Shown here: in pieces, positions 6,416-32,976 of the stretch
Position numbering within the stretch: the first letter of the stretch is position 1
Layout of the letters: every line of letters begins with the position of its first letter
From: a virus
Direction: 5' to 3' (one strand)
Length of the DNA: 64,000 nt
UHGV virus genome: UHGV-0028991
The notes under the pieces: generated by a model
What the model was told of the DNA's origin: nothing
Database searches by the model: none
Seen by the model: the letters and a program-made list of their open reading frames with translations, nothing else
Position numbers and translations under genes: made by a program

Positions 6416-6781
6416 TTATTCGTCCTTCCTTTCCTTAATTCCTAAAAACAATGCCAGCTTGTCCATAAATTCGTCTGCCCTATCAGAATCAATAAAATGT
6501 CCGTATACAATACATTGATTGCCCTTTTCAACACATAAGCACGGCTTCTTTCTATCGGGGAATTGAAATGCGCCAACGCAAACATCTGAATTGTTAGTTA
6601 TCACCTTCGACATGATTATCTGCCTCCGAGCTGCATATGATTGTTTGTCCGAATCCGTTAGTGTATACAGTATTATCGCAAGAAATATGGCTTGGTTGTA
6701 AAGAAACAAACGGGCACATAGCATTTGTGAGCCTGCACAAGCCACAAGGCAAACGAGAAGCACAAGGTTTTGAATATGCAC
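6416..6781 (-). CDS. hypothetical protein
   Basis: 121 aa ORF directly downstream of the ATPase. Confidence 0.35.
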   Translation of the reverse strand: MHIQNLVLLVCLVACAGSQMLCARLFLYNQAIFLAIILYTLTDSDKQSYAARRQIIMSKVITNNSDVCVGAFQFPDRKKPCLCVEKGNQCIVYGHFIDSDRADEFMDKLALFLGIKERKDE

Positions 6782-6850
6782 CTGTGTTTGGCGCTGTTGT
6801 TATAGTATTTGGCAAGTATGTTTTTGTGTTGATTTCGTTAATATTCGTTG

Positions 6851-7111
6851 TCAAGGTTCACCAACCTCCTCATCTGTTTGATGCATTTTTGAGCCACAAT
6901 TGCAACAGTAAAGACCTGCATCGACAATTGAAACATTGCGTCCACATCTACTGCATACTTTACAATTAGCAGAGTTTTCATCATCTTTCCACTCAGCAAG
7001 CTCTAACCGTTTGAAATAAGCACTGTCATTGTCACTACAATCATTTAGCCCATCAATTGTTACGCCAATTACTTTGCCATGTTCGTAATTAACGCCGAGG
7101 ATTCTTTTCAT
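6851..7111 (-). CDS. hypothetical zinc-ribbon protein
   Basis: 86 aa with CKVCSRCGRN...CCNCGSK. Confidence 0.35.
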   Translation of the reverse strand: MKRILGVNYEHGKVIGVTIDGLNDCSDNDSAYFKRLELAEWKDDENSANCKVCSRCGRNVSIVDAGLYCCNCGSKMHQTDEEVGEP

Positions 7112-7365
7112 TGTTTATCTCCCTCCAATATTGGACGTCCACGCCAACAATAAGCCTCATCTGATGTGTAGTCTACCAGCCCATTGCCCATTGTTTCATG
7201 CACGGCGTGGCAGAAAATCGTGCCGCGATATCGGCAATCTTTACATCGCACCACAATCTCTGGAAAGGCACTACTGTCTCGCAGTCTCTTTGCCACAAAG
7301 GTCGCGCCACAGTTCTCAGCGAAAGCAGCAGCCGTATCAGCATCAATCAGTCTCATCGTTGTCAT
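7108..7365 (-). CDS. hypothetical Cys-rich protein (RCKDCxYRG family, paralog A)
   Basis: 85 aa. VVRCKDCRYRG...C...VDYTSDEAYCWRG motif shared with the next gene. Confidence 0.4.
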   Translation of the reverse strand: MTTMRLIDADTAAAFAENCGATFVAKRLRDSSAFPEIVVRCKDCRYRGTIFCHAVHETMGNGLVDYTSDEAYCWRGRPILEGDKQ

Positions 7366-7891
7366 CGCCCTTCATGTTTGTAATCGGGCAACCATTGTTA
7401 TCTGTGAGCACCGCCCAACGCTTCACTTCGTCCCAATGAATATAATCCATATCGCTTGCAGTTTCCCAACATTCAAGCATGGAATTATACTTAGCCACAA
7501 TATAATCTCCATCATTGTATGCATATAATTTGTCATTATCACGGCTTTTTACTTGCAAAATATGATATGCATATTTGTACGGCCAATCCGTTTCGTCAGG
7601 AATCCACATTCCATTTGATTCTTGTATGGGATGCCGCCAATTAAACTTCATAGGCTTAGGTTGTTTCTTTGAATATCCGCGATGGCAAAATCCTTCGTCC
7701 CGAGCAAAATCAACATATTCTCCACTTGGAACCAAATGAAACATCGGGCAATTATGGTCACCACGATATTCACAATCCTTACATCTTACAATTGATACAA
7801 TGTCTGGAACATTATTGAGCAAAATTTTTACTTCGGGGGAACAATCAAGAATTATGCCCTCAAGTGTTTTACGGTTAATATATTCAGCCAT
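7343..7891 (-). CDS. hypothetical Cys-rich protein (RCKDCxYRG family, paralog B)
   Basis: 182 aa. IVRCKDCEYRGDHNCPMFHLVPSGEYVDFARDEGFCHRG. Confidence 0.4.
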   Translation of the reverse strand: MAEYINRKTLEGIILDCSPEVKILLNNVPDIVSIVRCKDCEYRGDHNCPMFHLVPSGEYVDFARDEGFCHRGYSKKQPKPMKFNWRHPIQESNGMWIPDETDWPYKYAYHILQVKSRDNDKLYAYNDGDYIVAKYNSMLECWETASDMDYIHWDEVKRWAVLTDNNGCPITNMKGDDNDETD

Positions 7892-8202
7892 CAGTCATCA
7901 CCATCCATTCTTGTTCCGCAACAAGGACACCATTTGAAGTCTTGTGTGTCATTATCGCAATAATTCCACTGCGCCCCACATTTTGAACAGAACATATAAT
8001 CTTTGTTGTCAATCCATCTTCCATGTTTAACAATTGCAACATTAAGTGGCAATGCTTTACTTACTACACCTATGGCACTCTCAAAGCCAAAAGTATAACT
8101 AACATCCCAGCATTCAGTATCTTTGCATTCATATTTATCGTTAAGGTCTTTAAACAACGCATTTTTATCAATATATTCAGCCATTATTAGCCCTCCTCTC
8201 AC
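7891..8202 (-). CDS. hypothetical Cys-rich protein
   Basis: 103 aa with CSKCG...CPCCG. Confidence 0.35.
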   Translation of the reverse strand: MRGGLIMAEYIDKNALFKDLNDKYECKDTECWDVSYTFGFESAIGVVSKALPLNVAIVKHGRWIDNKDYMFCSKCGAQWNYCDNDTQDFKWCPCCGTRMDGDD

Positions 8203-8374: not shown

Positions 8375-8776
8375 TCATTCTACCTCCTGCATCCAAAACT
8401 TGCGGCGGCAATCAGCGCAAATGCCGCTTTCGATGCAGTATGCATTACTTTCGATGCAGTATGCATTACAAGCACCTCTATCATCTCTGTATTCTTTCTT
8501 TAACGCTGCGGGGCAAAGAACAAGCACGCCGGTGCTCTTATCTACTTTTGCCTCGGGGTACTGCTCCAAAAATACACTTTGTCTTGTTTTACGAGGATGT
8601 TCGGCAGACCATTTTTCAACAATGGCGACTTGTTCTTTGTTTTTTGCTAAAGACACCCCATTAGCAAGTATGCAATTCACAGCGATGCCGGACTTGTAAA
8701 AACAAGGGCATTTCGAACATGTTTCATAAAATCTGCACATCCTGTCTTTTTCTTCGAGAAATTTAACAGCATCCAT
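8375..8776 (-). CDS. hypothetical protein
   Basis: 133 aa ORF, Cys-rich. Confidence 0.35.
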   Translation of the reverse strand: MDAVKFLEEKDRMCRFYETCSKCPCFYKSGIAVNCILANGVSLAKNKEQVAIVEKWSAEHPRKTRQSVFLEQYPEAKVDKSTGVLVLCPAALKKEYRDDRGACNAYCIESNAYCIESGICADCRRKFWMQEVE

Positions 8777-9057
8777 TATTCAATCCTCTCATTCCACAAT
8801 TCAATTGCTTTTGCCTGCAGCTCTTCGTCAGTGGCAATTTTATTTCGATATGGCGCTGGAACATCATTTTCGCAATTGCCATAATCCCCAACAAGCCCGC
8901 TTGCAAGTCCACCTCTTGCATAGCACACTCCGCATCGCACAGAATATTTAACACGCTCTATATATTTGTCACCATATGAAAATGTATAAAAGCTGGCGTT
9001 CTTTACAAGCTTAACCTTTGGATTTCCACAGAAAGGGCAGGGCTTTATTTCTTGCAT
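8776..9057 (-). CDS. hypothetical zinc-ribbon protein
   Basis: 93 aa with CPFCGNPK...CGVCYARG. Confidence 0.35.
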   Translation of the reverse strand: MQEIKPCPFCGNPKVKLVKNASFYTFSYGDKYIERVKYSVRCGVCYARGGLASGLVGDYGNCENDVPAPYRNKIATDEELQAKAIELWNERIE

Positions 9058-9392
9058 TATTTTGCCTCCGTATTTTTACTCGGTTCTACAAACGGATCAT
9101 ACTCGCTCTCTTCCGCGCTGTTTGCCCATTTTACCCACGCAACTACTTTTTCTCGCAATTCATCATCGAGTAAAAATGGTTCTTGCACTAAAATGATGCG
9201 TGGATTTTTCTTCATAATGTTTGCGTTATCCACAACTTCTGAATATTCAACTGGATGTTGCAACATTTTTGAATACACTCTGTCCCATTGGTTTGAAGCC
9301 CTACGTGTGGCGCCTGCTTCTCTGAGTTCAAACTTTCTCTTTAGGTGAGGATTCAATTTAAGGTTGTAAACTTGAATATACCCAATCCTCAT
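9057..9392 (-). CDS. hypothetical protein
   Basis: 111 aa ORF. Confidence 0.35.
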   Translation of the reverse strand: MRIGYIQVYNLKLNPHLKRKFELREAGATRRASNQWDRVYSKMLQHPVEYSEVVDNANIMKKNPRIILVQEPFLLDDELREKVVAWVKWANSAEESEYDPFVEPSKNTEAK

Positions 9393-9623
9393 TTATTTAT
9401 CCACCTCCTTAATCACAATATTTTTATCTTTGTTCGGACACACACATTGTTCACTGCCTTCAAACACACAGTCCTCACATTTGCCAGTATTGTACCAACA
9501 GTCCTTGCATGATTTTGGAACGTCAAAGCCCATGTCTGTATACCAATCACATGATTGTGCTAATGCTTGTGGGCATTGTCCTGATATACATTCAAACGCA
9601 CAAAAGCCATAACAATGTTTCAT
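9393..9623 (-). CDS. hypothetical Cys-rich small protein
   Basis: 76 aa with many Cys. Confidence 0.3.
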   Translation of the reverse strand: MKHCYGFCAFECISGQCPQALAQSCDWYTDMGFDVPKSCKDCWYNTGKCEDCVFEGSEQCVCPNKDKNIVIKEVDK

Positions 9624-9649: not shown

Positions 9650-10345
9650 TTAATTTGAATTACGCCATTCACCAAAATATTTTTCTTCGGCTTCTTTACG
9701 AACTTTAACAGCGTCCTCTATATTAACATATGCTCCTAACGATATGCACTTCTTTCTAACTTGAATGTGTGCTTGCCATTTTTGTTTGCCTTTATACTCT
9801 GTACGTCTAACACCTGTATACCCACTTGTATTATTTTTATGAGTCTTTCGATTCATATTGTTTTCCCAGTTGTCGTATGGTCGTAAATTTTCCTTACGAT
9901 TATCATATCCATTGCCATTTTTATGGTCTATATACTTTCTCCCCATAATAAACCAATGCAACATTATCTCTTTGCCGTTTTGTCTGGAAGATATATACCC
10001 AGCGTTTGTCCGCCAACCCATATCTTTAATTTTTTCATAATCTTCTAAATCAAAATAGAATGGAGCGCCATCGTTTGTGGCAAATCCTATCCCATATTCT
10101 TTAGTTAAATCGTATTCGTTGTATTTTCTTTTTGTTTTGCGGTTAAACTCAGCCGTCGCTTCATGTCTTAAACAGCCACACGATTTAACTCTGCCACTCG
10201 TCAAATCGTGACCTTTAACTTCTTTTATGTTACCACAATCGCATATGCAACTCCAACAAGTACGTCCATCTTTATTGCTTTTAATTCTCTTCAGAACAAC
10301 AAGCTTGCCAAATCTTTGCCCAGTTAAATCTTTAACTTGACTCAT
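9650..10345 (-). CDS. HNH endonuclease with C-terminal AP2 DNA-binding domain (homing-type)
   Basis: 231 aa. HKNGNGYDNRKENLRPYDNWENNMNRKTH (HNH). GYTGVRRTEYKGKQKWQAHIQVRKKCISLGAYVNIEDAVKVRKEAEEKYFGE (AP2-like). Confidence 0.6.
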   Translation of the reverse strand: MSQVKDLTGQRFGKLVVLKRIKSNKDGRTCWSCICDCGNIKEVKGHDLTSGRVKSCGCLRHEATAEFNRKTKRKYNEYDLTKEYGIGFATNDGAPFYFDLEDYEKIKDMGWRTNAGYISSRQNGKEIMLHWFIMGRKYIDHKNGNGYDNRKENLRPYDNWENNMNRKTHKNNTSGYTGVRRTEYKGKQKWQAHIQVRKKCISLGAYVNIEDAVKVRKEAEEKYFGEWRNSN

Positions 10346-10462
10346 ATTGTATTCTCCTTACACAAGAAATATTAAAGTGGAGGGCCGGTGTAAGCAACCC
10401 TCCTAAATAGTAGAGATTAGCTACCTTCTATTAACCTTTATCTAATTATACCATATTTATTG

Positions 10463-13400
10463 CTATTTGTCAAGCACTTTCCAACATTTTATTTCGATGT
10501 TTTTTTCACCTGTCTTTATCCACTTGCCATCAGAATTTTTCGTCCATTTAGGCACATTGTCAAGCACGGCTTTGATTATATCTCCTGATTTGCATTGATG
10601 CCCAGCCCACCATTTTTTATTGCACTTGTATTGACGCTCAACCCCGTGTTGTAGGTTGTATAGCCTTAACCATGCAGTACCGTAATTAGTGGTTTTACTG
10701 TCAAGCACAAGCCAGTCATTTATGTCTCGCTTTGAATCACAACCGTCAACATATCCTAAAAATTCTGCCTGCCATCTCAGCATGTCCACAATGGTCGTCT
10801 TAGGCATACTTTCTTGCTTAAGAATCGCAAGAATCAAAGCATAGTTGTCAATGCCACTTGCCGTCTTATCGGTCATTTTTTCGGCATGTTGCCTTAATAC
10901 ATCTACATTATAGCACATCTCAATCCATTTGTCAAGCTTTATTGTCTTAGATTTATAAAAAAGATTGAAAACGCGCGCGCCCTCAAGCAATGCCCTTGCT
11001 TTACCGAACTCTGAGAAATAGCCGATTTTAATCAATATATCGAGTTGTCGACTATCAGGCTTGACTGGCAAGTATTGCATACAAAACAGAAAATCAATGA
11101 AATTTTTGAATTGCTTATCTCGCAGAAGATACAGACTTTCTGCAACATCTGATGACATATATTTGATTGAGCCCAGTCCTTTATATATACAATTGCTATT
11201 AACATCACAGAGATAGTCAGACCGCGAATGCCTAAACTTAGGGGGGTTGATTGTTATGCCTACTTTATGTGCGTATGCCGTTAATGCATCCGTCTTTTCG
11301 CCGTTGCTTTGATTGATGTTTAGGGCAACCGTTAAGAATTGAAGCGGGTAGTGGTATCGCAACCATCCAGACACATAGCCTTCATAGCTGTATGGTTGGC
11401 TATGGTTTAGGCTAAACAGGTAATTACTGGCATCGATAACAACTTGAATAAAATCAGCAATAACCGCATCCGATTCCTCTTGACTCATATTATATCGCTC
11501 AGACATAGTTTTAGCAAACCCAGCTTTGATTTGAGGTATATCCTTATCTGTGCCTATTTTTTTTGCAAAGTGACGACGTACAACATCTGCCTCGCCCATA
11601 GTATATCCGCAATATTCATGCAAGAATTGAATTATTTGACACTGAAATACTAAGTACCCAAATGTCGGTTTCATGAATTCATCAATCGCCGCATTGCCAG
11701 ATTTGCGAATGACGCCATTGGCAAGGTCATCACGATACGATGCTCCTGCAGGCCGAATAGCACCATTGCCAATGGATAACAATGTCATATAATCAATATC
11801 GGGGTTGAGCGCCTTGAATTTTTGTATATTACTATCCGACAGCAACTGCTTGATATACCTGTCGCCAGTCGCGCCCTCCCACTGAAAAATACAAGTAGTA
11901 TCATCTCGGATGCTATTCCACACAGCGCCGTCATTGATATCAATATTATCTGGGGTCAAACGTTCAATACCTGCCAACTTGCATGTCTCGTTGATAAGTT
12001 CTATCGTATCAAGTTTCAGCAGGTCGAGTTTGACGTAGTTCTGAAGGTCGACCTCTTTCATATTGATTTGACTGATAGGCACATCATCCGTTGATGTCGT
12101 AAACAGTCCCATGCGGTCATCGATAGACACTGGCGAACAAACCAATCCGCAAGGATGGTTGCCCACAGACACCACGCAGCCATTTACGATGTCTACATAT
12201 TTGAACAGTTCAGGATATTTAGAGCGGCACCCATCCTCATCTTGCTCTACCACGTTGCAGATAGCATCGACTTCATCAAGCGGCATACCCAATGCACGAC
12301 CAACATCTCGCACAGCGCCCTTAATCGCTATAGTATTAAATGTCACAATATCAGAGCAATATAGTCCATGTTTGTTGAATATGTACTGCTTGACCTCGTT
12401 GATTCGACTCGGCGGGAAATCCGTATCGATATCGCTCAATGACACACGCTCCGTATTCATAAATCGTTCAAAATTCAGCCCATGCTTGATGCTATTCATC
12501 TCTGTGATGCCGAGTAGATAGGCAATGATAGAGCCATTACATGAGCCACGCCCATAGCCGACAAAAATACCTTGCGTCTTGCACCAAGTAATAATATCCT
12601 CCATTAACAGCATGAAGTCAATGGCTCCATTGTGGATGTATGCTTTCATTTCATACTCAATACGGTCAAGATATTCCTGATAGTTTGGCAGCTTATCAAC
12701 ACCACGCCATTTAATACCGCCAGCAATCTTATCTCTAAGCACCCGTTCACTATCGTCTCCCCACAGATGAGGATACTTGTAGCTATAATCAAGCTCAAAA
12801 GGCTCAATCATATCGGCAACTATATTGGTCATTTCAATGGAATTGAGATACACGTCCATTGGTAAAGCGTCCTGTTGCTTACACAAATCGACCAGTTCGT
12901 TATAGCTCAGCATTTCAAGATGGAATTTGTCCTCGCCGTCAAAATGAATATTTTTGGCTTTTTGCAAAATACTACGACCTTCAACATGTTTAGCGTTCAG
13001 AGCGTGTGTGTCAGTGCACATAAGCAATCGCAAACCAGTTTGCTGAGACAACTTATATAGCAGCTGGTTATATCTTACTTGCTCTTGGTCAAGATGGGGC
13101 TGAATCTCAAGAAAGCATCGGTCTTTATGCCGGGTTAGCCATTTGAGAAAGTCAAGCCGAATATCGTCAGGCGCCTTGTTGAGTACGCCTCCGAGGCAGG
13201 CGGTAGACACAATAATGTTATCGCTTGTGTTTTTTACATCGTCAATTGTAATGCGTGGCACATAATAGAATGAATTGTCATCTCGATTAAAGGATTTGCT
13301 CGACAGCTTGTTCAACTCAAGCACGCCTGCATAATTTTTGGCAATAAGCAAGCAGTGGTAATTATCGCGGATTTTTTCATTGAGCGTGCTGGTCAAATAG

Positions 13401-13636
13401 AACTCTTCTGCCGCTATAAATTTTATGCCGGACTCTTCCATGCAAAGCTTTTTTTTGACCCACTGAAAAACGCTTCCGTGTTCGCTAAATGCCAGCGCCT
13501 TCATACCCCATTTTTTTGCTTGTTTGACATATTCATCATACGATGTCACAGAATCGATGTTGGTTACGCCGTTTGAAAGCATTGTGTGGCAATGTAATAT
13601 CGTATAATTAGACATAAGAAAGACCTCTGTCCGCAA
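10463..13636 (-). CDS. dnaE: DNA polymerase III alpha-subunit-like (DnaE family) replicative polymerase with N-terminal PHP domain
   Basis: 1057 aa. N-terminal ILHCHTMLSNG...AFSEHGSVFQW is a PHP-domain signature. Length and architecture fit the PolIIIalpha family. Confidence 0.65.
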   Translation of the reverse strand: MRTEVFLMSNYTILHCHTMLSNGVTNIDSVTSYDEYVKQAKKWGMKALAFSEHGSVFQWVKKKLCMEESGIKFIAAEEFYLTSTLNEKIRDNYHCLLIAKNYAGVLELNKLSSKSFNRDDNSFYYVPRITIDDVKNTSDNIIVSTACLGGVLNKAPDDIRLDFLKWLTRHKDRCFLEIQPHLDQEQVRYNQLLYKLSQQTGLRLLMCTDTHALNAKHVEGRSILQKAKNIHFDGEDKFHLEMLSYNELVDLCKQQDALPMDVYLNSIEMTNIVADMIEPFELDYSYKYPHLWGDDSERVLRDKIAGGIKWRGVDKLPNYQEYLDRIEYEMKAYIHNGAIDFMLLMEDIITWCKTQGIFVGYGRGSCNGSIIAYLLGITEMNSIKHGLNFERFMNTERVSLSDIDTDFPPSRINEVKQYIFNKHGLYCSDIVTFNTIAIKGAVRDVGRALGMPLDEVDAICNVVEQDEDGCRSKYPELFKYVDIVNGCVVSVGNHPCGLVCSPVSIDDRMGLFTTSTDDVPISQINMKEVDLQNYVKLDLLKLDTIELINETCKLAGIERLTPDNIDINDGAVWNSIRDDTTCIFQWEGATGDRYIKQLLSDSNIQKFKALNPDIDYMTLLSIGNGAIRPAGASYRDDLANGVIRKSGNAAIDEFMKPTFGYLVFQCQIIQFLHEYCGYTMGEADVVRRHFAKKIGTDKDIPQIKAGFAKTMSERYNMSQEESDAVIADFIQVVIDASNYLFSLNHSQPYSYEGYVSGWLRYHYPLQFLTVALNINQSNGEKTDALTAYAHKVGITINPPKFRHSRSDYLCDVNSNCIYKGLGSIKYMSSDVAESLYLLRDKQFKNFIDFLFCMQYLPVKPDSRQLDILIKIGYFSEFGKARALLEGARVFNLFYKSKTIKLDKWIEMCYNVDVLRQHAEKMTDKTASGIDNYALILAILKQESMPKTTIVDMLRWQAEFLGYVDGCDSKRDINDWLVLDSKTTNYGTAWLRLYNLQHGVERQYKCNKKWWAGHQCKSGDIIKAVLDNVPKWTKNSDGKWIKTGEKNIEIKCWKVLDK

Positions 13637-14264
13637 AGTCCTCGCGCATCGGTCTATCGCCTCTAAGCCACGACATCATGGCGCAAGCCTTTACCCCGTA
13701 TTCATATGCGCAGTCAGTTATGCAATCAAAAACAACACCATCACACACAACTTTCTTTGAGCGCGATATTCTCCCACCCTTGCCCTTTAATTTTTTTGAT
13801 ATTTTTTTTCTTGTTTCCTCTGAATGCGTTTTGCCATACATCGGGTTATTCTTCCCAGCCACATTACGAGCGGCAGAGTTCCTTTGTCTTGACATTTTGC
13901 TCGAACTATTTTCTGCAACGGTGCCCCATTTCAAATTGTTTGCACAATTATTGCACTCTTTATCATATTTGAGATTCTTTTCATCCTTATGCATTACGAC
14001 GAAATTCCCATCTGCATGGGGCAAGAACGCTCTCGCCACAAGAACATGAACCCTATATGTTTTTTCCGTTCCACCCTTACTCAAAGCGACCTGCCAATAC
14101 CTTCCTGCAGCGTCGGCATGAGGTGTTAGATATTTCCCCTTAAATCGCACTGCGACCCCGTTGCGCCTTAAAACCGTTCTGTCCAAACTTCGGACTCGCC
14201 CCATATTGCTTACTTGATATAACCCATCATAGCCATGGATATCTTTCCACTCTTCGTTGAGCAT
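13608..14264 (-). CDS. HNH homing endonuclease with NUMOD4/NUMOD3 motifs
   Basis: 218 aa. N-terminal EEWKDIHGYDGLYQVSNMGRVRSL (NUMOD4). NPMYGKTHSEETRKKISKKLKGK (NUMOD3). Overlaps the 3' end of dnaE by 29 nt. Confidence 0.6.
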   Translation of the reverse strand: MLNEEWKDIHGYDGLYQVSNMGRVRSLDRTVLRRNGVAVRFKGKYLTPHADAAGRYWQVALSKGGTEKTYRVHVLVARAFLPHADGNFVVMHKDEKNLKYDKECNNCANNLKWGTVAENSSSKMSRQRNSAARNVAGKNNPMYGKTHSEETRKKISKKLKGKGGRISRSKKVVCDGVVFDCITDCAYEYGVKACAMMSWLRGDRPMREDFADRGLSYV

Positions 14265-14291: not shown

Positions 14292-15287
14292 TCAGTTGCT
14301 ATTCTGTTTTTCTAATTCCTTCTGTTTATATGCCGCCCTATATTCATCACGCTTAGCCTCATCACCATCATTCCACCATTTCACATTGATGAAATCAAGG
14401 ACTTTGGCCATACCAAGCCCCTTATCAGGAACCCACTTACCAGATTTATCGTATTTGCCACCACGCATACAATAATCATAGAGTTGTGGGTGAGATACGG
14501 CTAATTGCTGAAATCTATTTGGTTCTTTCTCAAGATGGCATCCATAACCACAAAACACGCAGCCAGTACGTTTGCACTTTGTTGTTGTATATTTGCCATA
14601 CTCATCCAATACAATTTCTCCGTAAACCTCTTTACAATATGGCACATTAAATTTAAGCAGATATTCAAGAACATCCGATTTAGTCCAAAACGACAACGGC
14701 TTAGACACCTTTTTCTTGCCATCAAAGCTATTGCATCCATGTTTAAGCCAATCGGACATGCGAAACATCGATTCTTCCGTCATTGTTCCGACATATAAAT
14801 ATCTGCCTGTTTCGCGCGTGTATCTATCCGTTGGCATCTTTTTCATAATGCTACAACAGTGGTCGCCAATGCGGATATCACATGACGGTTCAAGAAATAT
14901 CTTCCATTTTTCTCTTATCTTGAATCTTCCGCCATTTCCTTCAATTCGCACCTTCTTTAGTTTGTCGCTTTTGGAATTATACATGTCCCAAATAAACCGC
15001 GATTGTTCTTTGCTAATTAACGGGTAGCCATATTGCTTAATTATATCTACAAACGACATTCGTTCGTAGCATCGAGTTTTACGGTTATATGTTTGCGGAT
15101 GTAATATTTCGAGGCGCGCTCTTTTCAGAACAAAATCTCTTAATTCTGGATATTCAAGACCTGTATCACAATACACGTCTGGCACATCAGGATATACTCT
15201 ATGCACTAAATCACTCAGCACGGTTGAGTCAACGCCGCCAGAATTGCTTATTGCAACAGCCCCCCCCCCAACCTTCATGCCATTCAA
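14292..15287 (-). CDS. PP-loop ATPase of the PAPS-reductase / DndC / TtuA-like family, with C-terminal Cys cluster
   Basis: 331 aa. GGGAVAISNSGGVDSTVLSDLV is a PP-loop SGGxDS motif. C-terminal CKRTGCVFCGYGC is a likely Fe-S or zinc site. A G10 tract sits in codons 6 to 9. Confidence 0.55.
   Translation of the reverse strand: MNGMKVGGGAVAISNSGGVDSTVLSDLVHRVYPDVPDVYCDTGLEYPELRDFVLKRARLEILHPQTYNRKTRCYERMSFVDIIKQYGYPLISKEQSRFIWDMYNSKSDKLKKVRIEGNGGRFKIREKWKIFLEPSCDIRIGDHCCSIMKKMPTDRYTRETGRYLYVGTMTEESMFRMSDWLKHGCNSFDGKKKVSKPLSFWTKSDVLEYLLKFNVPYCKEVYGEIVLDEYGKYTTTKCKRTGCVFCGYGCHLEKEPNRFQQLAVSHPQLYDYCMRGGKYDKSGKWVPDKGLGMAKVLDFINVKWWNDGDEAKRDEYRAAYKQKELEKQNSN
15260..15269. repeat. homopolymeric C10/G10 tract within the 5' coding region of the PP-loop ATPase gene
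   Basis: Ten consecutive C on the plus strand, read as gtt ggg ggg ggg gct (VGGGA) on the minus strand, six nt after the ATG at 15276..15278. Confidence 0.9.
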
Positions 15288-15382
15288 TTATACGAGCGGT
15301 GCTTATTTGAATCTTTTCTTCAAGCGTCTTGGCTTGTAATACCCGCAAATCCTCTGTTGTATGACTCATTATTCGTCACCTC

Positions 15383-16018
15383 TCATTTCTTCGGTCTCGC
15401 AGGCATCAACACACCATCACCATTTTCAGCCTCAAAATAAATAGCAGAAACACCATTTCTTGCATAAGCGGTTGCATTAGGCAAACAACCCATAATATTT
15501 GCAAGATAAGCAGGGTTTACATATACATCCAATTCTTCGTCAAGACAGTACAGCTCGTCTTTATTGCAAGTCTTGCAGAATACCTTAATATCAGCAAGGT
15601 CAGGCAGAACGATTTGCTGCGCACCATCGGGCTTCTTAACAATGTGTTTGAGATGAAAAGGCTCGCCTGCTCCATCGGAAATGCGCTCAAGCGGCAATTC
15701 CTTTTTGAATCGAACGGCAGTACATCCATCACATACACAATATACGGTCTCGCCGTATTCATTTTCGTCCTCATACATGCCGTGGATATTGGGCTTGTCT
15801 GGATAGCATTTTTTTGCATTCTTGATGATTGCATTGGCGGCATTATACACGCTCTTTACCCCGCCTTGCTTAGCTGCTACATCCCGCATTTCTTTTTCAA
15901 GAGCTTCTTTCAAAAGGGCGAATTCGGTTGCAACACCTGAACTTAACATTCCGCCACAATCCTTTTTCCATTGTTCTTCCCACTTAGAAATAATCGGATA
16001 AAGCTTTTCTGCTTTCAT
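15383..16018 (-). CDS. hypothetical protein lying between the PP-loop ATPase and cysteine desulfurase genes
   Basis: 211 aa ORF; no recognisable motif. Confidence 0.4.
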   Translation of the reverse strand: MKAEKLYPIISKWEEQWKKDCGGMLSSGVATEFALLKEALEKEMRDVAAKQGGVKSVYNAANAIIKNAKKCYPDKPNIHGMYEDENEYGETVYCVCDGCTAVRFKKELPLERISDGAGEPFHLKHIVKKPDGAQQIVLPDLADIKVFCKTCNKDELYCLDEELDVYVNPAYLANIMGCLPNATAYARNGVSAIYFEAENGDGVLMPARPKK

Positions 16019-16215
16019 GCCTTCACCTCATAATTATACATAAATTTCTGCATATTTATACATTCTCGCTGAACTTCCACGGCTTGTGCGGCGTATTTGT
16101 AACTGTACTTGTTTGCCTTTTTCTCGGATTGTTCGACTTGATAACTGATAAGCAGTATAACCACAATCAGAATCATTAGGATTGCCGCCCACAAATGGTC
16201 TTTCCAATCTCGCAT
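16015..16215 (-). CDS. small hypothetical membrane protein
   Basis: 66 aa with one predicted TM segment (AAILMILIVVILLISY). ATGA-type overlap with the downstream gene. Confidence 0.25.
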   Translation of the reverse strand: MRDWKDHLWAAILMILIVVILLISYQVEQSEKKANKYSYKYAAQAVEVQRECINMQKFMYNYEVKA

Positions 16216-16270
16216 TATTCATGCCTCCTTTGATTTGTTGATTGTATTATACTGCAAATAAATTGATTTG

Positions 16271-17341
16271 TCAATAGGTTTTACAAAAATTTTTGTAAAA
16301 ATCTGAAATTCCTGATACCAGTGCGTCAATATCGGACTTTTTTGTATATCGGCTAAATGAAATTCTGATAGTTTCTTCGGCGGTTTCTTTTGAGTAACCA
16401 TAGCCGTCACACAAAACGCGGTAGTCATGTTTGGCAGAGCATGCCGACGCTCCTGAACCGACATAGACATTTTTTGTAGAGAGATATTGCTGCAATGCGT
16501 CCGCGTTAATGCCAGAAAGATAAACAGCATTGATTGCGTCTGTCTTATTTTCTCCATGTCCGCCAAGTACAAACGCACAATCGTCTGTCACTTTAATAAC
16601 CTCTTTGAGGAAATAATCGACAAATCCCTTATAGGTCGCTTCACGATTGCCCGCAATATCCTGCGCCCATTCAAAGGCAGACACCATGGCAGAAATTGAT
16701 GCAACATCAGGAGTGCCGTGAAGAATGCCATAGTTGTTATTCGGGTCGTCTGACAATTCAAACCTCTTGCACAACTCATCACATAACCACAGCACGCCAA
16801 TATGTGGTCCATGGAACTTATGCCCACTGAACCAACAAGCGTCATATTTAAGTTTCTTCTGCGAACAGTCAACTTTACCAATTGCGGCAGTTAAATCACA
16901 ACCGTTAAAATCATATTCGTCCAGACATGAATCATCTGTTCTTTTTGGCAGGAACCAAGGGTTCTCAAACACATCGCCAGTCATTTGATTAACGCGCTGC
17001 CAAAATCTCAATGACACAAGCCTCAACGGCGATTTCTGAGCGACATCCCATACGCTGTCATGCTCTTTTGCATCGGTGCAAATCAAACCATCCCACAGCC
17101 GTCCGAGCATCTCAACGCTCTCTGTTGCGCATCTTGTAAAGATAAATTTGCCCTTGCCACCTGTGTCAAGCAATTCATGTAGCCGTAAACGGCATTTTTT
17201 TAGCGTCTGACGCTCGTTTATAGCATAGGGTGTATTGGCATTGCCCCACAGGTTGTCGCCCCGTACAGCGAAAAATTTTGGCATTGTCGTTGCGGCGTTA
17301 TCGAGATAAACAATGTTATCTTTCATTTTTCTCTCCTTCAA
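16271..17341 (-). CDS. cysteine desulfurase (class V aminotransferase, NifS/IscS-like)
   Basis: 356 aa. N-terminal IVYLDNAATT; FIFTRCATES; SGHKFHGPHIGVLW, where the SGHK lysine is the PLP-binding residue. Confidence 0.6.
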   Translation of the reverse strand: MKERKMKDNIVYLDNAATTMPKFFAVRGDNLWGNANTPYAINERQTLKKCRLRLHELLDTGGKGKFIFTRCATESVEMLGRLWDGLICTDAKEHDSVWDVAQKSPLRLVSLRFWQRVNQMTGDVFENPWFLPKRTDDSCLDEYDFNGCDLTAAIGKVDCSQKKLKYDACWFSGHKFHGPHIGVLWLCDELCKRFELSDDPNNNYGILHGTPDVASISAMVSAFEWAQDIAGNREATYKGFVDYFLKEVIKVTDDCAFVLGGHGENKTDAINAVYLSGINADALQQYLSTKNVYVGSGASACSAKHDYRVLCDGYGYSKETAEETIRISFSRYTKKSDIDALVSGISDFYKNFCKTY

Positions 17342-17423
17342 TTATCGTCCTCGTATAAAATCGACATAAACAAAAGCCCGAGAATAAAACCAATGACAAT
17401 TGCAGATATAGCATAAAGCGGTG

Positions 17424-17795
17424 TCAAGACAGTCCGACCTCCATAGTATCATTCTCATCCATCGATTCAACCATAAGCAAGATTAAATCGACTTGATGAA
17501 TGGCAACCATAACATCCTCAATTTGCTCTTCTACGAGCAGAATGCGGTCTGTGATAGTCCGCCTATCATCAACTGCGGTCAGTCCGCCCAATACAATATA
17601 TTCCTTGGTTTTCTGTTTTTGCAATTCTTCATTCTGTTGCCACATCAATTCTTTCACGCTACAAACATATTCAAGGTCGAGCTCGGTAAAAGAATCGGGC
17701 ATAGCATATGCCATAAGAAACTTTGCAAGTATGGACTCAGAGTATAATGAAAGCACCGTCATGCCGTTCTTCCGAACAATTACTTCGCCATTCAT
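17424..17795 (-). CDS. hypothetical protein
   Basis: 123 aa ORF. Confidence 0.35.
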   Translation of the reverse strand: MNGEVIVRKNGMTVLSLYSESILAKFLMAYAMPDSFTELDLEYVCSVKELMWQQNEELQKQKTKEYIVLGGLTAVDDRRTITDRILLVEEQIEDVMVAIHQVDLILLMVESMDENDTMEVGLS

Positions 17796-17928
17796 TTCTG
17801 CTCACCCGCCTTATCAAGTTCGTCTACCTTGCATACAAAGCACTTGCCAGAACAAGCAACTCCGCCTGCAACACGCAATTCTGCGCCGACCTGTTCAAAT
17901 TGCTTGCCACAATTGACACATGTGGACA
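17794..17928 (-). CDS. small zinc-ribbon protein (44 aa)
   Basis: MSTCVNCGKQFEQVGAELRVAGGVACSGKCFVCK... Stop overlaps the next ATG. Below the length cutoff of the supplied track. Confidence 0.3.
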
Positions 17929-17952
17929 TATCCGCCGCGACTTTCTTCTTTC

Positions 17953-18186
17953 TCACTTCGTGCTCCGGGCAATCTTTGCATCAGGATTTTGCTCATTATA
18001 TGCCCGAATCAAAGCGGCAACAATATGGCTTTGCCGCTCAGTCTCGACCTTCAATCTCTCATACTTGGCAATTTCATTATACACTTTATTCAGCTTTACC
18101 ATTTCCTGCGTTCCTCCATGCAAAATTGTTCTTATAGTTCGTCCGCTTTTCAGTTGAATATTTATCACAGTTGTCCTTGCCCACAC
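17953..18186 (-). CDS. hypothetical protein
   Basis: 77 aa ORF; partly overlaps 18086..18334 in another frame. Confidence 0.25.
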   Translation of the reverse strand: MWARTTVINIQLKSGRTIRTILHGGTQEMVKLNKVYNEIAKYERLKVETERQSHIVAALIRAYNEQNPDAKIARSTK

Positions 18187-18585: not shown

Positions 18586-18851
18586 AACATGTCCTCCTCA
18601 AAATTAAATCTATCACAGCTTGGACAGAACGCCCCAATATGTGATTCAAATGGAGCGCCGTCCAATTCATAGTGATATTCTTTGTGCTCTTGGTATTCAA
18701 GCTCTTGCCCGCACTTTTGACATCGGTCATTATCCGATAGCCACCTGTGGCAATCTGCATCAATTTCGTCCTTTGATTCCGACAAAATCTCGATCAGCAA
18801 TGCCGCAATTTCATCATACGGTAAATCAAGCTCGTTGATTACGTCCCACAT
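18582..18851 (-). CDS. hypothetical zinc-ribbon protein
   Basis: 89 aa with CQKCGQ...CPSCD. Confidence 0.3.
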   Translation of the reverse strand: MWDVINELDLPYDEIAALLIEILSESKDEIDADCHRWLSDNDRCQKCGQELEYQEHKEYHYELDGAPFESHIGAFCPSCDRFNFEEDML

Positions 18852-18867
18852 ATTGCCTCCTATATCA

Positions 18868-19704
18868 TTAGAATGTCATTGCCGAAACGGCTGCGTTGAC
18901 CGCTTTCTCGTTGGTCTTGATATATCTGCTCGTAGTAGAAATAGACGAATGATGCAGTACATCACGAATAACCGCAACAGGTACACCGTTCTCGGACATA
19001 ATGGATGCACACGCCGCTCTCAGCGAATGCGCAGAAATCTCAAATGGCAACCCCGCTTTTCGCCCAACAACCTTCAGCGTCTTGTCGAAATTGGCGTTAT
19101 TGATTTTGCCGCCCCATGTGGAAGTAAACAAATATTCACCGCCGTCTTTTCTCTTCGGCAGATATTGTTCAATTGCCACAATATTTGCATCGCTGAAGAA
19201 CGCAAAGAATTCCTTGCCGCCCTTACCTGTCATAGCAATCTTGTTCGCACCGTCTTTGCGCATTTGTTCGTATTGCTTAAGAGTGATGCTTGTGAGCTCG
19301 TTGAATCGAAGCCCAGTAGTTGCATAGCAGGAAATCAGCGCCTTATCGCGGGCATTTGTCGCGGCTTTAATAAGCGCAGACACCATATCTGCACTCATAA
19401 ATTCCTTCGGCTTAGAATGAATGCTCGGGCGCTTAACATTCGCCATTGGATTCTTTTCAATCGTCCCGCATTCGCACAGAAACTTGAAATAAGAATTGAG
19501 CGCGTTAAGCTTAATATTGATTGTCGCAGAAGAAGCATCGGACATGCTTTCCATCCATGCGAGAATATCATATTTCTCAACGCGCTCTGCGTCCTTATTT
19601 GCAAAAGCAAAGAAATTTGCAATTGCCTCGGCATATCTTGCGATTGTGTTTGCGGCTTTCTTTTCTGCTCTCAGGCTGATAAGATACTCATTAAACTTCG
19701 TCAT
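18868..19704 (-). CDS. int: tyrosine recombinase / phage integrase
   Basis: 278 aa. C-terminal HSLRAACASIMSENGVPVAVIRDVLHHSSISTTSRYIKT carries the R, H-x-x-R and Y catalytic signature. Confidence 0.7.
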   Translation of the reverse strand: MTKFNEYLISLRAEKKAANTIARYAEAIANFFAFANKDAERVEKYDILAWMESMSDASSATINIKLNALNSYFKFLCECGTIEKNPMANVKRPSIHSKPKEFMSADMVSALIKAATNARDKALISCYATTGLRFNELTSITLKQYEQMRKDGANKIAMTGKGGKEFFAFFSDANIVAIEQYLPKRKDGGEYLFTSTWGGKINNANFDKTLKVVGRKAGLPFEISAHSLRAACASIMSENGVPVAVIRDVLHHSSISTTSRYIKTNEKAVNAAVSAMTF

Positions 19705-21660: not shown

Positions 21661-21730
21661 ATGTGGACTATGCATCTGTTCACAAATCACGCTATCTGCA
21701 AACTTCTTAATATCGCATAGTCTATCCGAG

Positions 21731-21816
21731 TGAACACTGAAAGACTCGAACTTTCATCCTCCCGTCAGCCTCGTCGCTGAATTTCTATCGGCGCTCTCCC
21801 TTTGAGCTAAGCGTTC
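21731..21816 (-). tRNA. tRNA-like element (86 nt) with canonical acceptor, D- and T-arms but an irregular, long central region; possible type-II tRNA or tRNA pseudogene
   Basis: Minus strand: acceptor GAACGCT/AGTGTTC (7 bp including one G-U pair). D-arm GCTC-AAAGGGA-GAGC. T-arm GAAAG-TTCGAGT-CTTTC with a consensus T-loop. 37 nt lie between the D- and T-arms. No clean 5 bp + 7 nt anticodon arm was found; the best candidate is GCCGA/TAGAAAT/TCAGC with one C-A mismatch. No encoded CCA. Confidence 0.35.
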
Positions 21817-22395: not shown

Positions 22396-22469
22396 TGGTA
22401 CTGTAAGATAGTGTCGAACTATCGTCTATCGGTTATAAGCCGATTGCTCTTCCGTTGAGCTATTACAGC
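22396..22469 (-). tRNA. tRNA with anticodon UAU (reads AUA; tRNA-Ile-like), CCA encoded
   Basis: Minus strand GCTGTAA-TA-GCTC-AACGGAA-GAGC-A-ATCGG-CTTATAA-CCGAT-AGAC-GATAG-TTCGACA-CTATC-TTACAGT-A-CCA. All four stems pair; the first acceptor pair is G-U. Anticodon loop CTTATAA gives anticodon TAT. Confidence 0.6.
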
Positions 22470-31568: not shown

Positions 31569-31865
31569 TTATTTATGTCCGGTTCGGTCTGCCACCTCTT
31601 TTCTGAGGTATTTTAGATAGAACAGCGCTTTATCAATGTCTTGTAGCCCGTTTTTCTTTTTAAAGCGCCATGTATATTTTATTACATTGGCAACACAGAC
31701 GGCTTCAATTCCTTGTTTGTCTACGGTTGCAGCTTTTATTGCGTCAAGACATTCAATTCCGCCTTGCGTGTAATGAGATGGATGCTGCACCATATCGTCC
31801 TTGGGTTTGGTTGTTTCAGATTTTTTCATTGCTTTCCTCCAATTCTTCAAGGTCTTTATTTCCAT
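31569..31865 (-). CDS. DUF3310-like phage protein
   Basis: 98 aa. HPSHYTQGGIECLDAIKAA resembles the HYxxGxIExIDxI signature of the DUF3310 family. Confidence 0.4.
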   Translation of the reverse strand: MEIKTLKNWRKAMKKSETTKPKDDMVQHPSHYTQGGIECLDAIKAATVDKQGIEAVCVANVIKYTWRFKKKNGLQDIDKALFYLKYLRKEVADRTGHK

Positions 31866-32976
31866 ATCGGACTTCTTGTCCGTATATGTTCTTTAATGCG
31901 TCAACTGCCTCTTCAACAGTGATATAGAAGAATTCTCTGTTTGGCGATACGCGCTTAGAGTCGAAATGTGCATGCATCTTAGATTCAATGTCAAATGCAT
32001 CATCACAGAAGCAATAAGCATTAAGCGCAAACGGCTCAGGAAGTGAGGACGAGCTGAGCTCTCGCACGCGCGTATAAGGAGACAATCTCCTTGTAACGCC
32101 AATTTTCTGAATTCTGGGCAAGGACGGTGAAGAAATAACATACACAAATCCCGCTTTTTTATTTCTTGCTCTGTACTGCAAGCTTGCAATTCTGCGGTCA
32201 ATGTTGGTTATGTTTTGCTTTAAGACTCTTGCCTCTTCGTCGTTGAGCGTGCGACCATATGCAAGTTCCATTGATAGGCGTTCTTCTTTGAGCTTTCTTG
32301 TTTCGGCTTCAATTTCAAGTAGCAGTTGTTCCTGTTCTTTTAACAGGCGTTTTTCTTCTCTGAGTTTAATCCGTTCTGCTTTTGCCCGTTCTTTGATAAG
32401 GACATTAAGGCGCATAAGTTCAATGCGTAGGCTTGCATATTTTGAGTTTAATGAAACGCCTACCATTTTTGTTTTGCGTTGTAGAGTATTAAAGCGGTCG
32501 GTTGCATGTTTCATCGCAAGCGCAAGAGGACTTACAGAGCAAGTCTTTTCTTTCTGTTCCACGTAAGCGTTGAATGCATACAGGCACCCAGTCGCAACAG
32601 CCTTTTGCAAATCATTTCCTTTTGCTCTTGAGCCTTCGATAGTATATTGCTCGTCAACTCTCCACAGACCATCTGCTGAAAGTAACTTTCTTGTTGAGTA
32701 ATCACTGCCCGCCAGTTCTTGTATTTGCATTAAGACGGTCGCTTTCTTGCTTTCAAGTTCAGAGCAAGATAAATTACTGGGTATGATAGTCCTAATTCCA
32801 AAGTCTGACAGAACTTCTTGTGTTTCTATTGAATCACGCAGAAGTTTCAGGCGCTCATTGAGCTCGTTGGTTTCGGCGTTTAATCTTGCTTTCGTTGATT
32901 CAAGCGAAGCGACTTGGCGCTCAAGCGTTTTCTTTTCTGTTTTTAATTTATCAAACATTTTATTTCTCCTAACCAT
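31816..32976 (-). CDS. DUF4041 coiled-coil / T5orf172 (MUG113, GIY-YIG-like) domain protein
   Basis: 386 aa. N-terminal two-thirds is coiled coil. C-terminal GFVYVISSPSLPRIQKIGVTRRLSPYTRVRELSSSSLPEPFAL...ESKMHAHF...REFFYIT matches the T5orf172 domain pattern. Confidence 0.6.
   Translation of the reverse strand: MVRRNKMFDKLKTEKKTLERQVASLESTKARLNAETNELNERLKLLRDSIETQEVLSDFGIRTIIPSNLSCSELESKKATVLMQIQELAGSDYSTRKLLSADGLWRVDEQYTIEGSRAKGNDLQKAVATGCLYAFNAYVEQKEKTCSVSPLALAMKHATDRFNTLQRKTKMVGVSLNSKYASLRIELMRLNVLIKERAKAERIKLREEKRLLKEQEQLLLEIEAETRKLKEERLSMELAYGRTLNDEEARVLKQNITNIDRRIASLQYRARNKKAGFVYVISSPSLPRIQKIGVTRRLSPYTRVRELSSSSLPEPFALNAYCFCDDAFDIESKMHAHFDSKRVSPNREFFYITVEEAVDALKNIYGQEVRYGNKDLEELEESNEKI

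Follow-up and report, generated by a model that had tools for sequence, protein, structure and literature searches.

The DNA analyzed here, referred to as the window, is a 64,000 nucleotide (nt) stretch of the virus genome UHGV-0028991. Four co-directional genes are found on its minus strand between a tyrosine-recombinase block and the gene for DNA polymerase III alpha (Pol III alpha, positions 10463–13636). Two of these genes are predicted to encode enzymes of sulfur chemistry: a cysteine desulfurase, and a PP-loop adenosine triphosphate (ATP) pyrophosphatase of the phosphoadenosine phosphosulfate (PAPS) reductase superfamily, whose reading frame is broken at a run of ten G residues. An initial annotation, made from the sequence alone, had paired the two as a sulfur-transfer module. 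The four genes and the homopolymer are as follows.

16271–17326, minus strand: NifS/IscS-class cysteine desulfurase (predicted), 351 amino acids (aa) when read from ATG 17326; the mechanical open reading frame (ORF), 16271–17341, begins at TTG 17341
16015–16215, minus strand: single-pass membrane protein of 66 aa (an ORF), with a 4 nt overlap between its stop and the start of the 211 aa gene
15383–16018, minus strand: 211 aa protein that joins three N-terminal helices to one DnaN-like domain (PHROG match, AlphaFold2 model and fold search)
14292–15369, minus strand: PAPS-reductase-superfamily PP-loop ATP pyrophosphatase (phrog_424 family, predicted), with a +1 frameshift; pieces 15229–15369 (N-terminal) and 14292–15287 (C-terminal)
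15260–15269, minus strand: G10 homopolymer (C10 on the plus strand) that spans conserved Trp-Gly-Gly codons and sets the reading frame of the PP-loop gene

The PP-loop gene and its homologs are also termed PAPS-like genes below. The 331 aa ORF that the initial annotation took for the whole gene is the 3' part of a gene of approximately 358 codons. Upstream of the G10 run, in another frame, is a 46 aa ORF (positions 15229–15369) that starts MSHTTEDLRVLQAKTLEEKIQISTARIIEWHEGW and represents the conserved N-terminus of the family. Homologs from Ruminococcus phages and from metagenomes align from residue 1 (Met) of this 46 aa ORF, and the real PP-loop gene is therefore 14292–15369. A tract of nine G residues would place the gene in frame and give an intact 358 aa protein, whereas G10 represents a +1 frameshift (OFF). 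The acceptor PP-loop enzyme is thus predicted to be OFF in this genome.

The G10 run is the sole run of seven or more G or C residues in the 64 kb window, and only about 0.016 runs of ten or more are expected there from base composition. In the haplotype of the window, G6 or G9 is in frame and G7 or G10 is out of frame. Contig L032 has a G7 tract, and the rest of its PP-loop gene differs from that of the window at 1 of 1068 nt. A G10 tract is present in a second lineage (L033), the intact sister of which, P0246, encodes W-G-A. L031 has an interrupted, in-frame tract, GGGGAGGGG (an interrupted 9-mer). The homologous Trp-Gly-Gly tract is an out-of-frame G6 in L023, from a phage only about 50% identical, and an in-frame G8 in L021. 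A protein cluster at 90% identity consists of intact members of 351–356 aa, including that of L031, and of N-terminally truncated calls. Out-of-frame tracts recur, G7 being present on 10 contigs and G10 on three or more. The 15 cluster members, which stem from consensus assemblies, include no in-frame allele with the uninterrupted tract of this haplotype. A sequencing artefact was considered as the sole cause of G10 and was rejected, since G7 recurs on 10 contigs and G10 on three or more from independent samples.

Tract length varies between near-identical genomes, with independent changes in three lineages. The G tract seen initially is length-polymorphic (G6, G7, G10 and the interrupted 9-mer among near-identical genomes), and it has the properties of a contingency locus: a homopolymer within coding sequence that sets the frame and differs in length between near-identical genomes. 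The poly-G tract in the PP-loop gene is hypermutable. What stands of the switchable ATPase gene first proposed is this polymorphic, frame-setting tract; in the present genome the gene itself is out of frame. Hypermutable poly-G tracts have reportedly been found in receptor-binding genes of Campylobacter phages, where a poly-G run likewise shifts a phage gene between in-frame and out-of-frame states. The window tract differs from these in that it lies in an enzyme gene and is known here from consensus assemblies.

The ratio of nonsynonymous to synonymous substitution rates (dN/dS) between OFF and ON alleles is approximately 0.09 and there are no secondary lesions, which speaks against a pseudogene of long standing. 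The two gene pieces remain open, with all catalytic motifs, and the internal ATG has no convincing ribosome-binding site upstream. A comparison of the window with L032 shows 51 differences in the surrounding 4 kb (98.7% identity), and the PAPS-like gene (positions 14292–15369 in the window, 2910–3984 in L032) is more conserved than these flanks, a possible sign of recent transfer or of a sweep.

Inactivation of the PAPS-like gene is found in several forms: G7, G10 and G6 frameshifts, one nonsense mutation and one clean deletion. In L030 a CAA-to-TAA nonsense codon is combined with a Gly-to-Arg change in the PP-loop. Recoding of TAG or TGA was rejected as an explanation of this in-frame stop, as the codon is TAA and alternative codes give no longer ORFs. 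In L004, where the desulfurase is 93% identical, the PAPS-like gene is cleanly missing, and 18 bp are present in place of approximately 1.1 kb.

The PP-loop motifs noted at the outset are all present in ORF 14292–15287: SGGVDS, a CC dyad (IGDHCCSIMKK) and CKRTGCVFCGYGC. The ORF matches Pfam PAPS_reduct (3.8e-14), and the protein matches phrog_424, 'phosphoadenosine phosphosulfate reductase', over residues 5–282 (5.3e-37). A tblastn search finds homologs in 38 of 50,697 GenBank phage records, 32 of them with at least 80% query coverage. Proteins of Ruminococcus, Clostridium, Enterobacter and Vibrio phages are 27–45% identical over more than 90% of the length, the Vibrio phage homologs being at 28–30% over 91% of the length; plasmid records gave only distant PAPS-like matches. 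The profile match and the full-length phage members place the protein in the phage PAPS-reductase-like family phrog_424.

An alignment of 44 homologs shows that SGG(K/V)DS, DTGLE(Y/F)PE, C171-C172, E199/S200/R203, C212, RTGC270xxC273 and C300 are invariant, and this set is nearly unchanged after the addition of cultured-phage members. The CC...CxxC cysteines have the pattern of [4Fe-4S] adenosine phosphosulfate (APS) reductases and are putative cluster ligands. The sequence features of a DndC-type enzyme, i.e., a PP-loop, a cysteine dyad and [4Fe-4S]-type cysteines, are thus found in SGGVDS, C171-C172 and C270xxC273. HMMER places the CC dyad (CCxxMKKxP) opposite 'YNDINKVEP' of the cluster-less E. 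coli CysH, the only reductase aligned there; [4Fe-4S] APS reductases presumably carry the cluster-binding CC at the equivalent position. An AlphaFold2 model of P0121, an intact relative 94% identical, has a predicted local distance difference test score (pLDDT) of 91. In a fold comparison of this model against the PDB, the best match is the [4Fe-4S] APS reductase 2GOY (3.5e-8), with CysH next.

The assignment within the superfamily is less direct. The CysH, APS-reductase and PAPS-reductase models of NCBIfam give 20–35 bits, against cut-offs of 154–254. Alignments A3 and A4, read directly, lack ECG(L/I)H, the C-terminal catalytic motif of sulfonucleotide reductases; the Cys of GCHLEK is not conserved in the family, and TMTEES..R is found in place of the Arg-rich loop. 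The initial annotation had named an assimilatory PAPS reductase as the identity that would speak against nucleic-acid modification, and the 331 aa protein, below the cut-offs and with no ECG(L/I)H tail, does not have this identity. DndC, one of the identities put forward, is not borne out either: TIGR03183 matches two of the 44 family members (best 2.4e-4) and PADLOC DndC matches 16 (best 3e-5), and the window protein is matched by neither. Among defence-system models, BrxP matches 43 of the 44 members (best 1e-20), SspD 41 and DndC 16. These matches cover mainly the PP-loop, e.g., positions 134–175 of 779 in the BrxP profile.

A TtuA/NcsA-like enzyme had also been suggested, and there is no ATP_bind_3 (PF01171) match at E <= 0.1. 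TtuA matches the PP-loop only in the PDB profile comparison (E 0.013), and in the fold search with the enzyme model it is found far behind the APS/PAPS reductases (E 2e-4, root-mean-square deviation (rmsd) of about 15 A). The terminal zinc fingers of TtuA are lacking, and the protein does not group with TtuA, NcsA or TtcA; there are weak local matches of the family to TtcA (21 of 44 members, best 3e-5) and to TilS. QueC was rejected as an identity, as only weak local PADLOC matches were found. From these comparisons the PP-loop protein is predicted to represent an unclassified Fe-S branch of the PAPS-reductase superfamily, and not an orthologue of CysH, DndC or TtuA.

The desulfurase ORF (positions 16271–17341) contains YLDNAATT and FSGHK, as first noted. 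Its start is most likely the ATG at 17326, which gives 351 aa as in P0001 and corrects the TTG at 17341. The ORF matches Pfam Aminotran_5 (3e-21) and, in PADLOC, DndA (5.7e-24) and SspA (7e-24). Comparison of the family profile with the PDB shows an end to end match to the T. maritima NifS-like protein 1ECX (8e-46), then IscS (1e-29 to 1e-33), DndA 3VAX (9e-21) and SspA 6M4J (1.5e-20). The catalytic residues are invariant in an alignment of 17 homologs that are 37–46% identical to the window desulfurase: H94 (the stacking His, in EHD), D149 (pyridine-binding), S172, H174, K175 (the pyridoxal phosphate lysine), T210, C301 (the catalytic Cys, in the GSGASAC loop) and R326 (the substrate Arg). 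The position of IscS Gln183 is an invariant Ala in the phage family, and approximately 25–40 residues are deleted after the EHD motif relative to cellular NifS. The fold and catalytic residues are those of group I (NifS/IscS). The curated NifS/IscS equivalog cut-offs are missed (77 vs 531 bits), and the family therefore represents a divergent, shortened branch of group I and not an orthologue. The protein is predicted to be a shortened NifS/IscS-class (group I) cysteine desulfurase.

The desulfurase family has 682 detected members, mostly on contigs of 60–90 kb. No homolog of more than 26% identity is present in GenBank phages or in 185,579 GTDB species genomes, and assignment of a host by way of a prophage in these genomes accordingly gave no result. 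The family is specific to an uncultured phage group. A megablast search with 12 kb of the window gave no match in GenBank phages, i.e., there is no sequenced close relative there. The carrier is an uncultured gut phage of 60–90 kb with a host probably in Clostridia. In all 24 related loci examined, the desulfurase gene is in the replication module, and its neighbours encode a DnaB-like helicase, a RecJ-like exonuclease, a beta-CASP nuclease, an AAA_24 protein, a Toprim-motif protein and Pol III alpha. The Toprim-motif neighbour was assigned by reading the EGEKS motif and has no Pfam match. L030 has two NifS-like gene copies (positions 10001–11095 and 18667–19704) approximately 8 kb apart, in addition to its PAPS-like pseudogene.

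Linkage of the two sulfur genes was surveyed in 24 desulfurase-bearing loci, which consist of the window, IMG/VR contigs and ENA/Logan contigs with flanks of 6–10 kb. The PAPS-like gene is immediately 3' of the desulfurase gene in nine of these (the window, L006, L013, L014, L015, L023, L026, L028 and L030); in L021 it is 5 kb away. The desulfurase stop and the PAPS-like start overlap by 4 nt in L006, L014, L026, L028 and L030, and are separated by 3 nt in L015 and by 13 nt in L023, so that seven of the nine adjacent pairs abut within a few bases. Adjacency spans desulfurase identities of 29–90%. The pairing noted initially is thus a linkage that persists down to 29% desulfurase identity. Searches of the literature for a phage desulfurase paired with a PAPS reductase gave nothing specific.

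The identity matrices of the two proteins are incongruent. The window and L028 are 29% identical in the desulfurase and 65% in the PAPS-like protein, the window and L013 are 90% and 63% identical, and L015 and L026 are 34% and 78% identical. PAPS-like alleles have therefore been exchanged between lineages while the slot after the desulfurase was kept. Taken together, repeated loss, allele exchange, strong purifying selection where the gene is present and a contingency tract are what a conflict (anti-defence) gene would be expected to show, and they do not suit a metabolic gene.

A reverse survey examined the best 80 PAPS-like viral loci for a NifS-like gene within 6 kb. The commonest neighbours of the PAPS-like genes in these loci are DNA methyltransferases. 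L065, an unrelated viral contig, has a PAPS-like gene (positions 1289–2242) and a NifS gene of normal length (6431–7582, 383 aa) approximately 4 kb apart. It also has a dCMP-deaminase-like gene within the same 5 kb, and represents an independent co-occurrence of both enzyme types. A different gene follows the desulfurase in six loci that have no PAPS-like gene. In L009 (positions 9011–9433) it encodes a 140 aa zinc-ribbon protein (CxCPHCGC...CPNC) with a 4 nt overlap, and homologs are found in L018–L021 and L024. This protein could be an alternative partner of the desulfurase.

The 211 aa and 66 aa ORFs recorded between the two sulfur genes are present (15383–16018 and 16015–16215). The 211 aa protein, described at first as unknown, is beta-clamp-like by PHROG match, conserved motif, AlphaFold2 model and fold matches. 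Its C-terminus has a weak match to phrog_947, 'DNA polymerase processivity factor' (0.003). The model (pLDDT 92) has bacterial beta clamps as all of its 50 best PDB folds, at modest scores (E 7.8e-4 to 1e-2, template modeling (TM) scores 0.43–0.49). A canonical beta clamp has three DnaN-type domains per subunit; the 211 aa protein has approximately one clamp domain and a helical N-terminus, and no Pfam DNA_pol3_beta match. The C-terminal motif VNPxYLxNxMxCLP...GDGVLLPxR is conserved in the family of 35 members and resembles the end of DnaN. L016, L034 and L037 have no PAPS-like gene, and there the homolog separates the desulfurase from Pol III alpha. It is an unusual, much-shortened processivity-factor-like protein that is kept beside Pol III alpha in several lineages. 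A role as sulfur carrier was considered and rejected, since the protein is clamp-like and travels with Pol III alpha. It belongs with replication and not, as first grouped, with the sulfur module, and is probably a replication accessory factor inserted between the sulfur genes. The 66 aa membrane protein has noise-level Pfam matches only. It is limited to the closest relatives (L004, L005 and L031–L033) and is absent from the other desulfurase-bearing loci. The best explanation is that both genes are later insertions outside the sulfur relay.

Three further features of the window bear on the region:

13608–14264, minus strand: HNH/NUMOD homing endonuclease (Pfam NUMOD4, NUMOD3 and HNH_3), between the PAPS-like gene and Pol III alpha
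21730–21816, minus strand: tRNA-Phe(GAA), a tRNA call of 87 nt, unusually long
22396–22469, minus strand: tRNA-Ile(UAU), a tRNA call

The endonuclease gene runs into the start of Pol III alpha, and L004 (positions 9970–10650) encodes a 100% identical protein. Flanking genes there are 91–96% identical, and the endonuclease gene adjoins the exact site of the missing PAPS-like gene; it is absent at the corresponding position in L005 and L032. It may be a mobile element that took part in deletion of the PAPS-like gene. Pol III alpha is split into two or three ORFs around an HNH-type ORF or other insert in L006 (14068–16833) and L032 (4012–6984), and likewise in L015 and L023 (about 14300–18100). 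L006 also has a DNA methylase with Hint/intein domains. In this phage group, introns, inteins or homing endonucleases appear to have spread extensively through the replication genes.

Both tRNA genes are in another gene block, 5–7 kb from the sulfur genes. The UAU anticodon of the tRNA-Ile (22396–22469) is rare in bacteria, where AUA is usually decoded by a lysidine-modified CAU. Elsewhere in the window, positions 31816–32976 (minus strand) encode a 386 aa protein with a T5orf172/MUG113 domain (Pfam) and a nearly full-length match to PD-Lambda-1 (PADLOC, 7.9e-41); it appears to be a phage-borne defence or superinfection-exclusion gene. Three successive small ORFs at 7108–8202 (minus strand) have a repeated 'RCKDC.YRG' cysteine motif, and further small Cys-rich proteins are encoded at 2304–2702, 8375–9057 and 9393–9623. 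These may be metal-binding.

DndA/DndC, SspA/SspD and the BREX type 4 desulfurase/BrxP share one chemistry, in which a desulfurase is paired with a [4Fe-4S] PP-loop enzyme of PAPS-reductase type (PMC12914056; PMC12839542; PMC10853773). All three systems additionally require a P-loop nucleoside triphosphatase (NTPase), i.e., DndD, SspC or BrxC. DndA assembles the DndC cluster and donates sulfur (PMC10853773). Cellular DndC is often served by the housekeeping IscS (PMC12914056; PMC10853773). Phosphorothioation by Dnd, Ssp and BREX-4 is frequent in gut Bacillota and Bacteroidota (PMC12914056). As in DndA-DndC, the phage pair has a NifS-like desulfurase and a PAPS-reductase-superfamily PP-loop enzyme with a cysteine dyad and a [4Fe-4S] cluster, putative in the phage enzyme. 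Unlike the phage pair, DndABCDE is found in a cellular defence island and includes the ABC/SMC-type ATPase DndD, DndE and DndB, none of which was found for the phage; the phage enzyme is approximately 355 aa and is matched weakly or not at all by DndC models. SspA-SspD and the BREX type 4 desulfurase-BrxP have the same two-enzyme sulfur logic, and BrxP and SspD are the best-scoring defence models. The DUF4007, Mog1p-like and ferredoxin-like extensions of BrxP (PMC12839542) are absent from the phage enzyme, and SspB nickase, SspC, BrxC, PglZ and BrxL do not accompany the phage pair.

The [4Fe-4S] APS reductase/CysH type is the closest solved fold (2GOY) and shares a PP-loop-like N-terminal motif and DTG..PE. 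The phage enzyme differs in its lack of an ECG(L/I)H tail, its approximately 100 extra residues and its context of replication and DNA-modification genes. The extra residues include a conserved C-terminal domain, GGKYDE.G.W.PDKGLGMAKVLD.I.VKWWNDGDE. The other phage 'PAPS reductases' of PHROG 424 also have the PP-loop, CC...CxxC and a variable accessory presence. They are solitary, often in head/packaging modules or beside methyltransferases, whereas in the window and eight related loci the gene is directly after a phage-specific NifS-like desulfurase, with a frame-setting poly-G in the window lineage. Firmicute desulfurases are typically encoded beside a dedicated PP-loop acceptor, as in the B. 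subtilis pairs YrvO-MnmA and NifZ-ThiI, which makes a dedicated phage desulfurase/PP-loop pair plausible. In these pairs, too, a specialised NifS-type desulfurase is encoded beside one PP-loop sulfur-inserting enzyme; the phage pair differs in that the acceptor is of the PAPS-reductase family and the desulfurase is also kept where the acceptor is absent.

The reading that we favour, tentatively and at somewhat less than even confidence, is that the desulfurase and the PP-loop enzyme form a sulfur-relay pair inside the replication module. The phage NifS-like desulfurase would take sulfur from cysteine as a persulfide on Cys301, as its fully conserved catalytic residues suggest. This sulfur would then build the [4Fe-4S] cluster of the PP-loop enzyme, be handed over as substrate sulfur, or both, by analogy with DndA/DndC, SspA/SspD and BREX-4 and in keeping with the coupling of the genes. 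The PP-loop enzyme may adenylate an oxygen of a nucleic acid and exchange it for sulfur. Among possible substrates DNA, probably that of the phage, is the likeliest, and the purpose would most likely be anti-defence: the modification would allow escape from, or mimicry of, a host phosphorothioate-based defence, as an anti-defence accessory comparable to a vibriophage 'PAPS reductase'. Two papers (PMC13551039 and PMC10945359) cite Piel et al. (2022, Nat Microbiol) for the report that this vibriophage protein counters Dnd; it is known here through these citing papers and may be one of the Vibrio homologs of the window protein. The PP-loop gene would be optional and under hypermutable poly-G control, and is predicted to be OFF in this genome (G10, +1). 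Its repeated loss or breakage under strong purifying selection would fit a gene that carries a cost and pays off on certain hosts only, and the desulfurase would have a second role independent of this partner. The coupling to a phage-specific desulfurase argues that the PAPS-reductase family performs genuine sulfur-transfer chemistry.

Several results weigh against a relay of this kind. An intact desulfurase is present with no PAPS-like gene within the 6–10 kb flanks in 14 of the 24 loci; these 14 keep the desulfurase, and it therefore has a role of its own. A NifS-like gene is nearby in only four of the best 80 PAPS-like viral loci (approximately 95% are without), and the PAPS-like homologs of cultured phages are solitary, in head or packaging modules. 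Neither the region's four genes nor ten large proteins of the window match DndD, DndE, SspC or BrxC, small DndE-like proteins not having been exhaustively searched. In agreement with the initial annotation, there is no DndD or DndE near the pair within this set. The operonic P-loop NTPase of Dnd, Ssp and BREX-4, and the DndE of Dnd, are not found, and the neighbours in the 24 loci are replication genes and methyltransferases. In addition, gut isolates with a PAPS-reductase gene showed no phosphorothioate where such an NTPase was missing (PMC12914056), DndD-DndE is described as the functional core of Dnd systems (PMC10853773), and the sequence places the PP-loop enzyme no nearer to DndC than to CysH or CysD. 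The linkage is genuine but runs one way: the desulfurase belongs to the core genes of this phage group, and the PP-loop enzyme is an accessory that is coupled to it when present. What survives of the sulfur-modification interpretation first offered is the pair, its conserved catalytic residues and the absence of Dnd partners; TtuA/NcsA, orthology to DndC and membership of the 211 aa protein do not. A more specific form, which we consider doubtful, is a minimal phage system of two enzymes for DNA sulfur modification that has no DndD/DndE-type ATPase, is perhaps coupled to the replisome and is turned ON and OFF by poly-G between hosts with and without phosphorothioate immunity. That such a system would write a phosphorothioate or other thio-mark onto replicating phage DNA is doubtful to the same degree.

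The main alternative, which we consider possible although unlikely, is that the two genes are functionally independent. The desulfurase would then be a conserved gene of the replication module with a different role, linked to replication or to sulfur supply, and the PAPS-like gene an unrelated anti-defence 'moron' at a permissive junction; the one would feed sulfur or Fe-S to host or phage proteins or to host thiolation, and the other would use host IscS/NifS or no sulfur. The 14 loci in which the intact desulfurase stands without a PAPS-like gene, always among replication genes, agree with this, as do the approximately 95% of the best PAPS-like viral loci that have no phage desulfurase. A tight junction is also found in PAPS-less loci, where the next gene likewise overlaps the desulfurase stop (e.g., the zinc-ribbon gene of L009), and in the window two unrelated genes separate the pair. 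Cellular DndC, moreover, often works with the housekeeping IscS (PMC12914056; PMC10853773). Chance proximity is difficult to reconcile with the rarity of PAPS-like genes (38 of 50,697 phage records), yet one is found after the desulfurase in nine of 24 loci at 29–90% identity. Seven of the nine pairs abut within a few bases, five with the 4 nt overlap, and alleles were swapped while the position was kept. The Firmicute desulfurases that typically adjoin a dedicated acceptor (YrvO-MnmA, NifZ-ThiI) also count against independence. A separate question, compatible with either the relay or independence, is whether the gene is simply dead here, G10 being a fixed lesion on the way to deletion and not a switch. 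This, too, is an unlikely explanation. All uninterrupted-tract alleles of the haplotype are out of frame (G7 on 10 contigs, G10 on three contigs and in the window), irreversible loss is found elsewhere (the TAA nonsense codon and Gly-to-Arg change of L030, the clean deletion of L004), and the internal ATG lacks a convincing ribosome-binding site. A dead allele does not account for two open gene pieces with all catalytic motifs, a dN/dS of 0.09 between OFF and ON alleles with no secondary lesions, or the single difference in 1068 nt that, tract excluded, sets the window gene apart from that of L032. The length of the tract varies between near-identical genomes and has changed independently in three lineages, and a G10 run by chance is very unlikely (about 0.016 expected).

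Two other functions are much less probable. An auxiliary sulfur-assimilation module, in which a CysH-type APS/PAPS reductase makes sulfite and the desulfurase redistributes cysteine sulfur to boost host metabolism, is considered very unlikely. It would agree with the best fold and sequence matches, which are assimilatory APS/PAPS reductases, with CC...CxxC as the APS-reductase cluster motif, and with the routine annotation of the phage family as metabolic (PMC11318856; PMC10945359). The scores of 20–35 bits against cut-offs of 154–254, the absent ECG(L/I)H motif, the unconserved GCHLEK Cys and the change of the Arg-rich loop to TMTEES..R do not fit it, nor does a neighbourhood of replication and DNA-modification genes that is not metabolic, and repeated inactivation is typical of conflict genes. 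The least probable function, and one with hardly any likelihood, is RNA thiolation by a TtuA/NcsA/TtcA-like tRNA thiolase acting on phage or host tRNAs. A PP-loop, a [4Fe-4S] cluster and a desulfurase are the logic of TtuA, TtcA and NcsA as well, the phage encodes two tRNAs, and there are the weak local matches to TtcA (21 of 44, best 3e-5) and TilS. The absence of a PF01171 match, the TtuA match over the PP-loop only (E 0.013), the poor TtuA fold match (E 2e-4, rmsd of about 15 A) and the lack of terminal zinc fingers argue against it. A phage tRNA with a U34 anticodon had been taken as a hint of thiolation, and tRNA-Ile(UAU) is indeed present; the tRNAs with 2-thiouridine at position 34 (s2U34) are those for Lys, Glu and Gln, not Ile(UAU) or Phe(GAA), so that both phage tRNAs, encoded 5–7 kb away in another block, are outside this class.

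That a large group of uncultured gut phages conserves a NifS-like gene in its replication module is a notable observation in itself, and the G tract is a probable case of poly-G switching in a gene for a phage enzyme. The widespread 'PAPS reductases' of phages are usually dismissed as sulfur-metabolism genes; one report, known here from the papers that cite it, links them to escape from Dnd. The desulfurase and the PAPS-like gene offer a compact two-gene system for reconstitution and a handle on the function of phage 'PAPS reductases'. If the sulfur relay is true, a poly-G-switched counter-system to Dnd, Ssp and BREX-4 would represent clear contingency-locus logic in a viral anti-defence gene.

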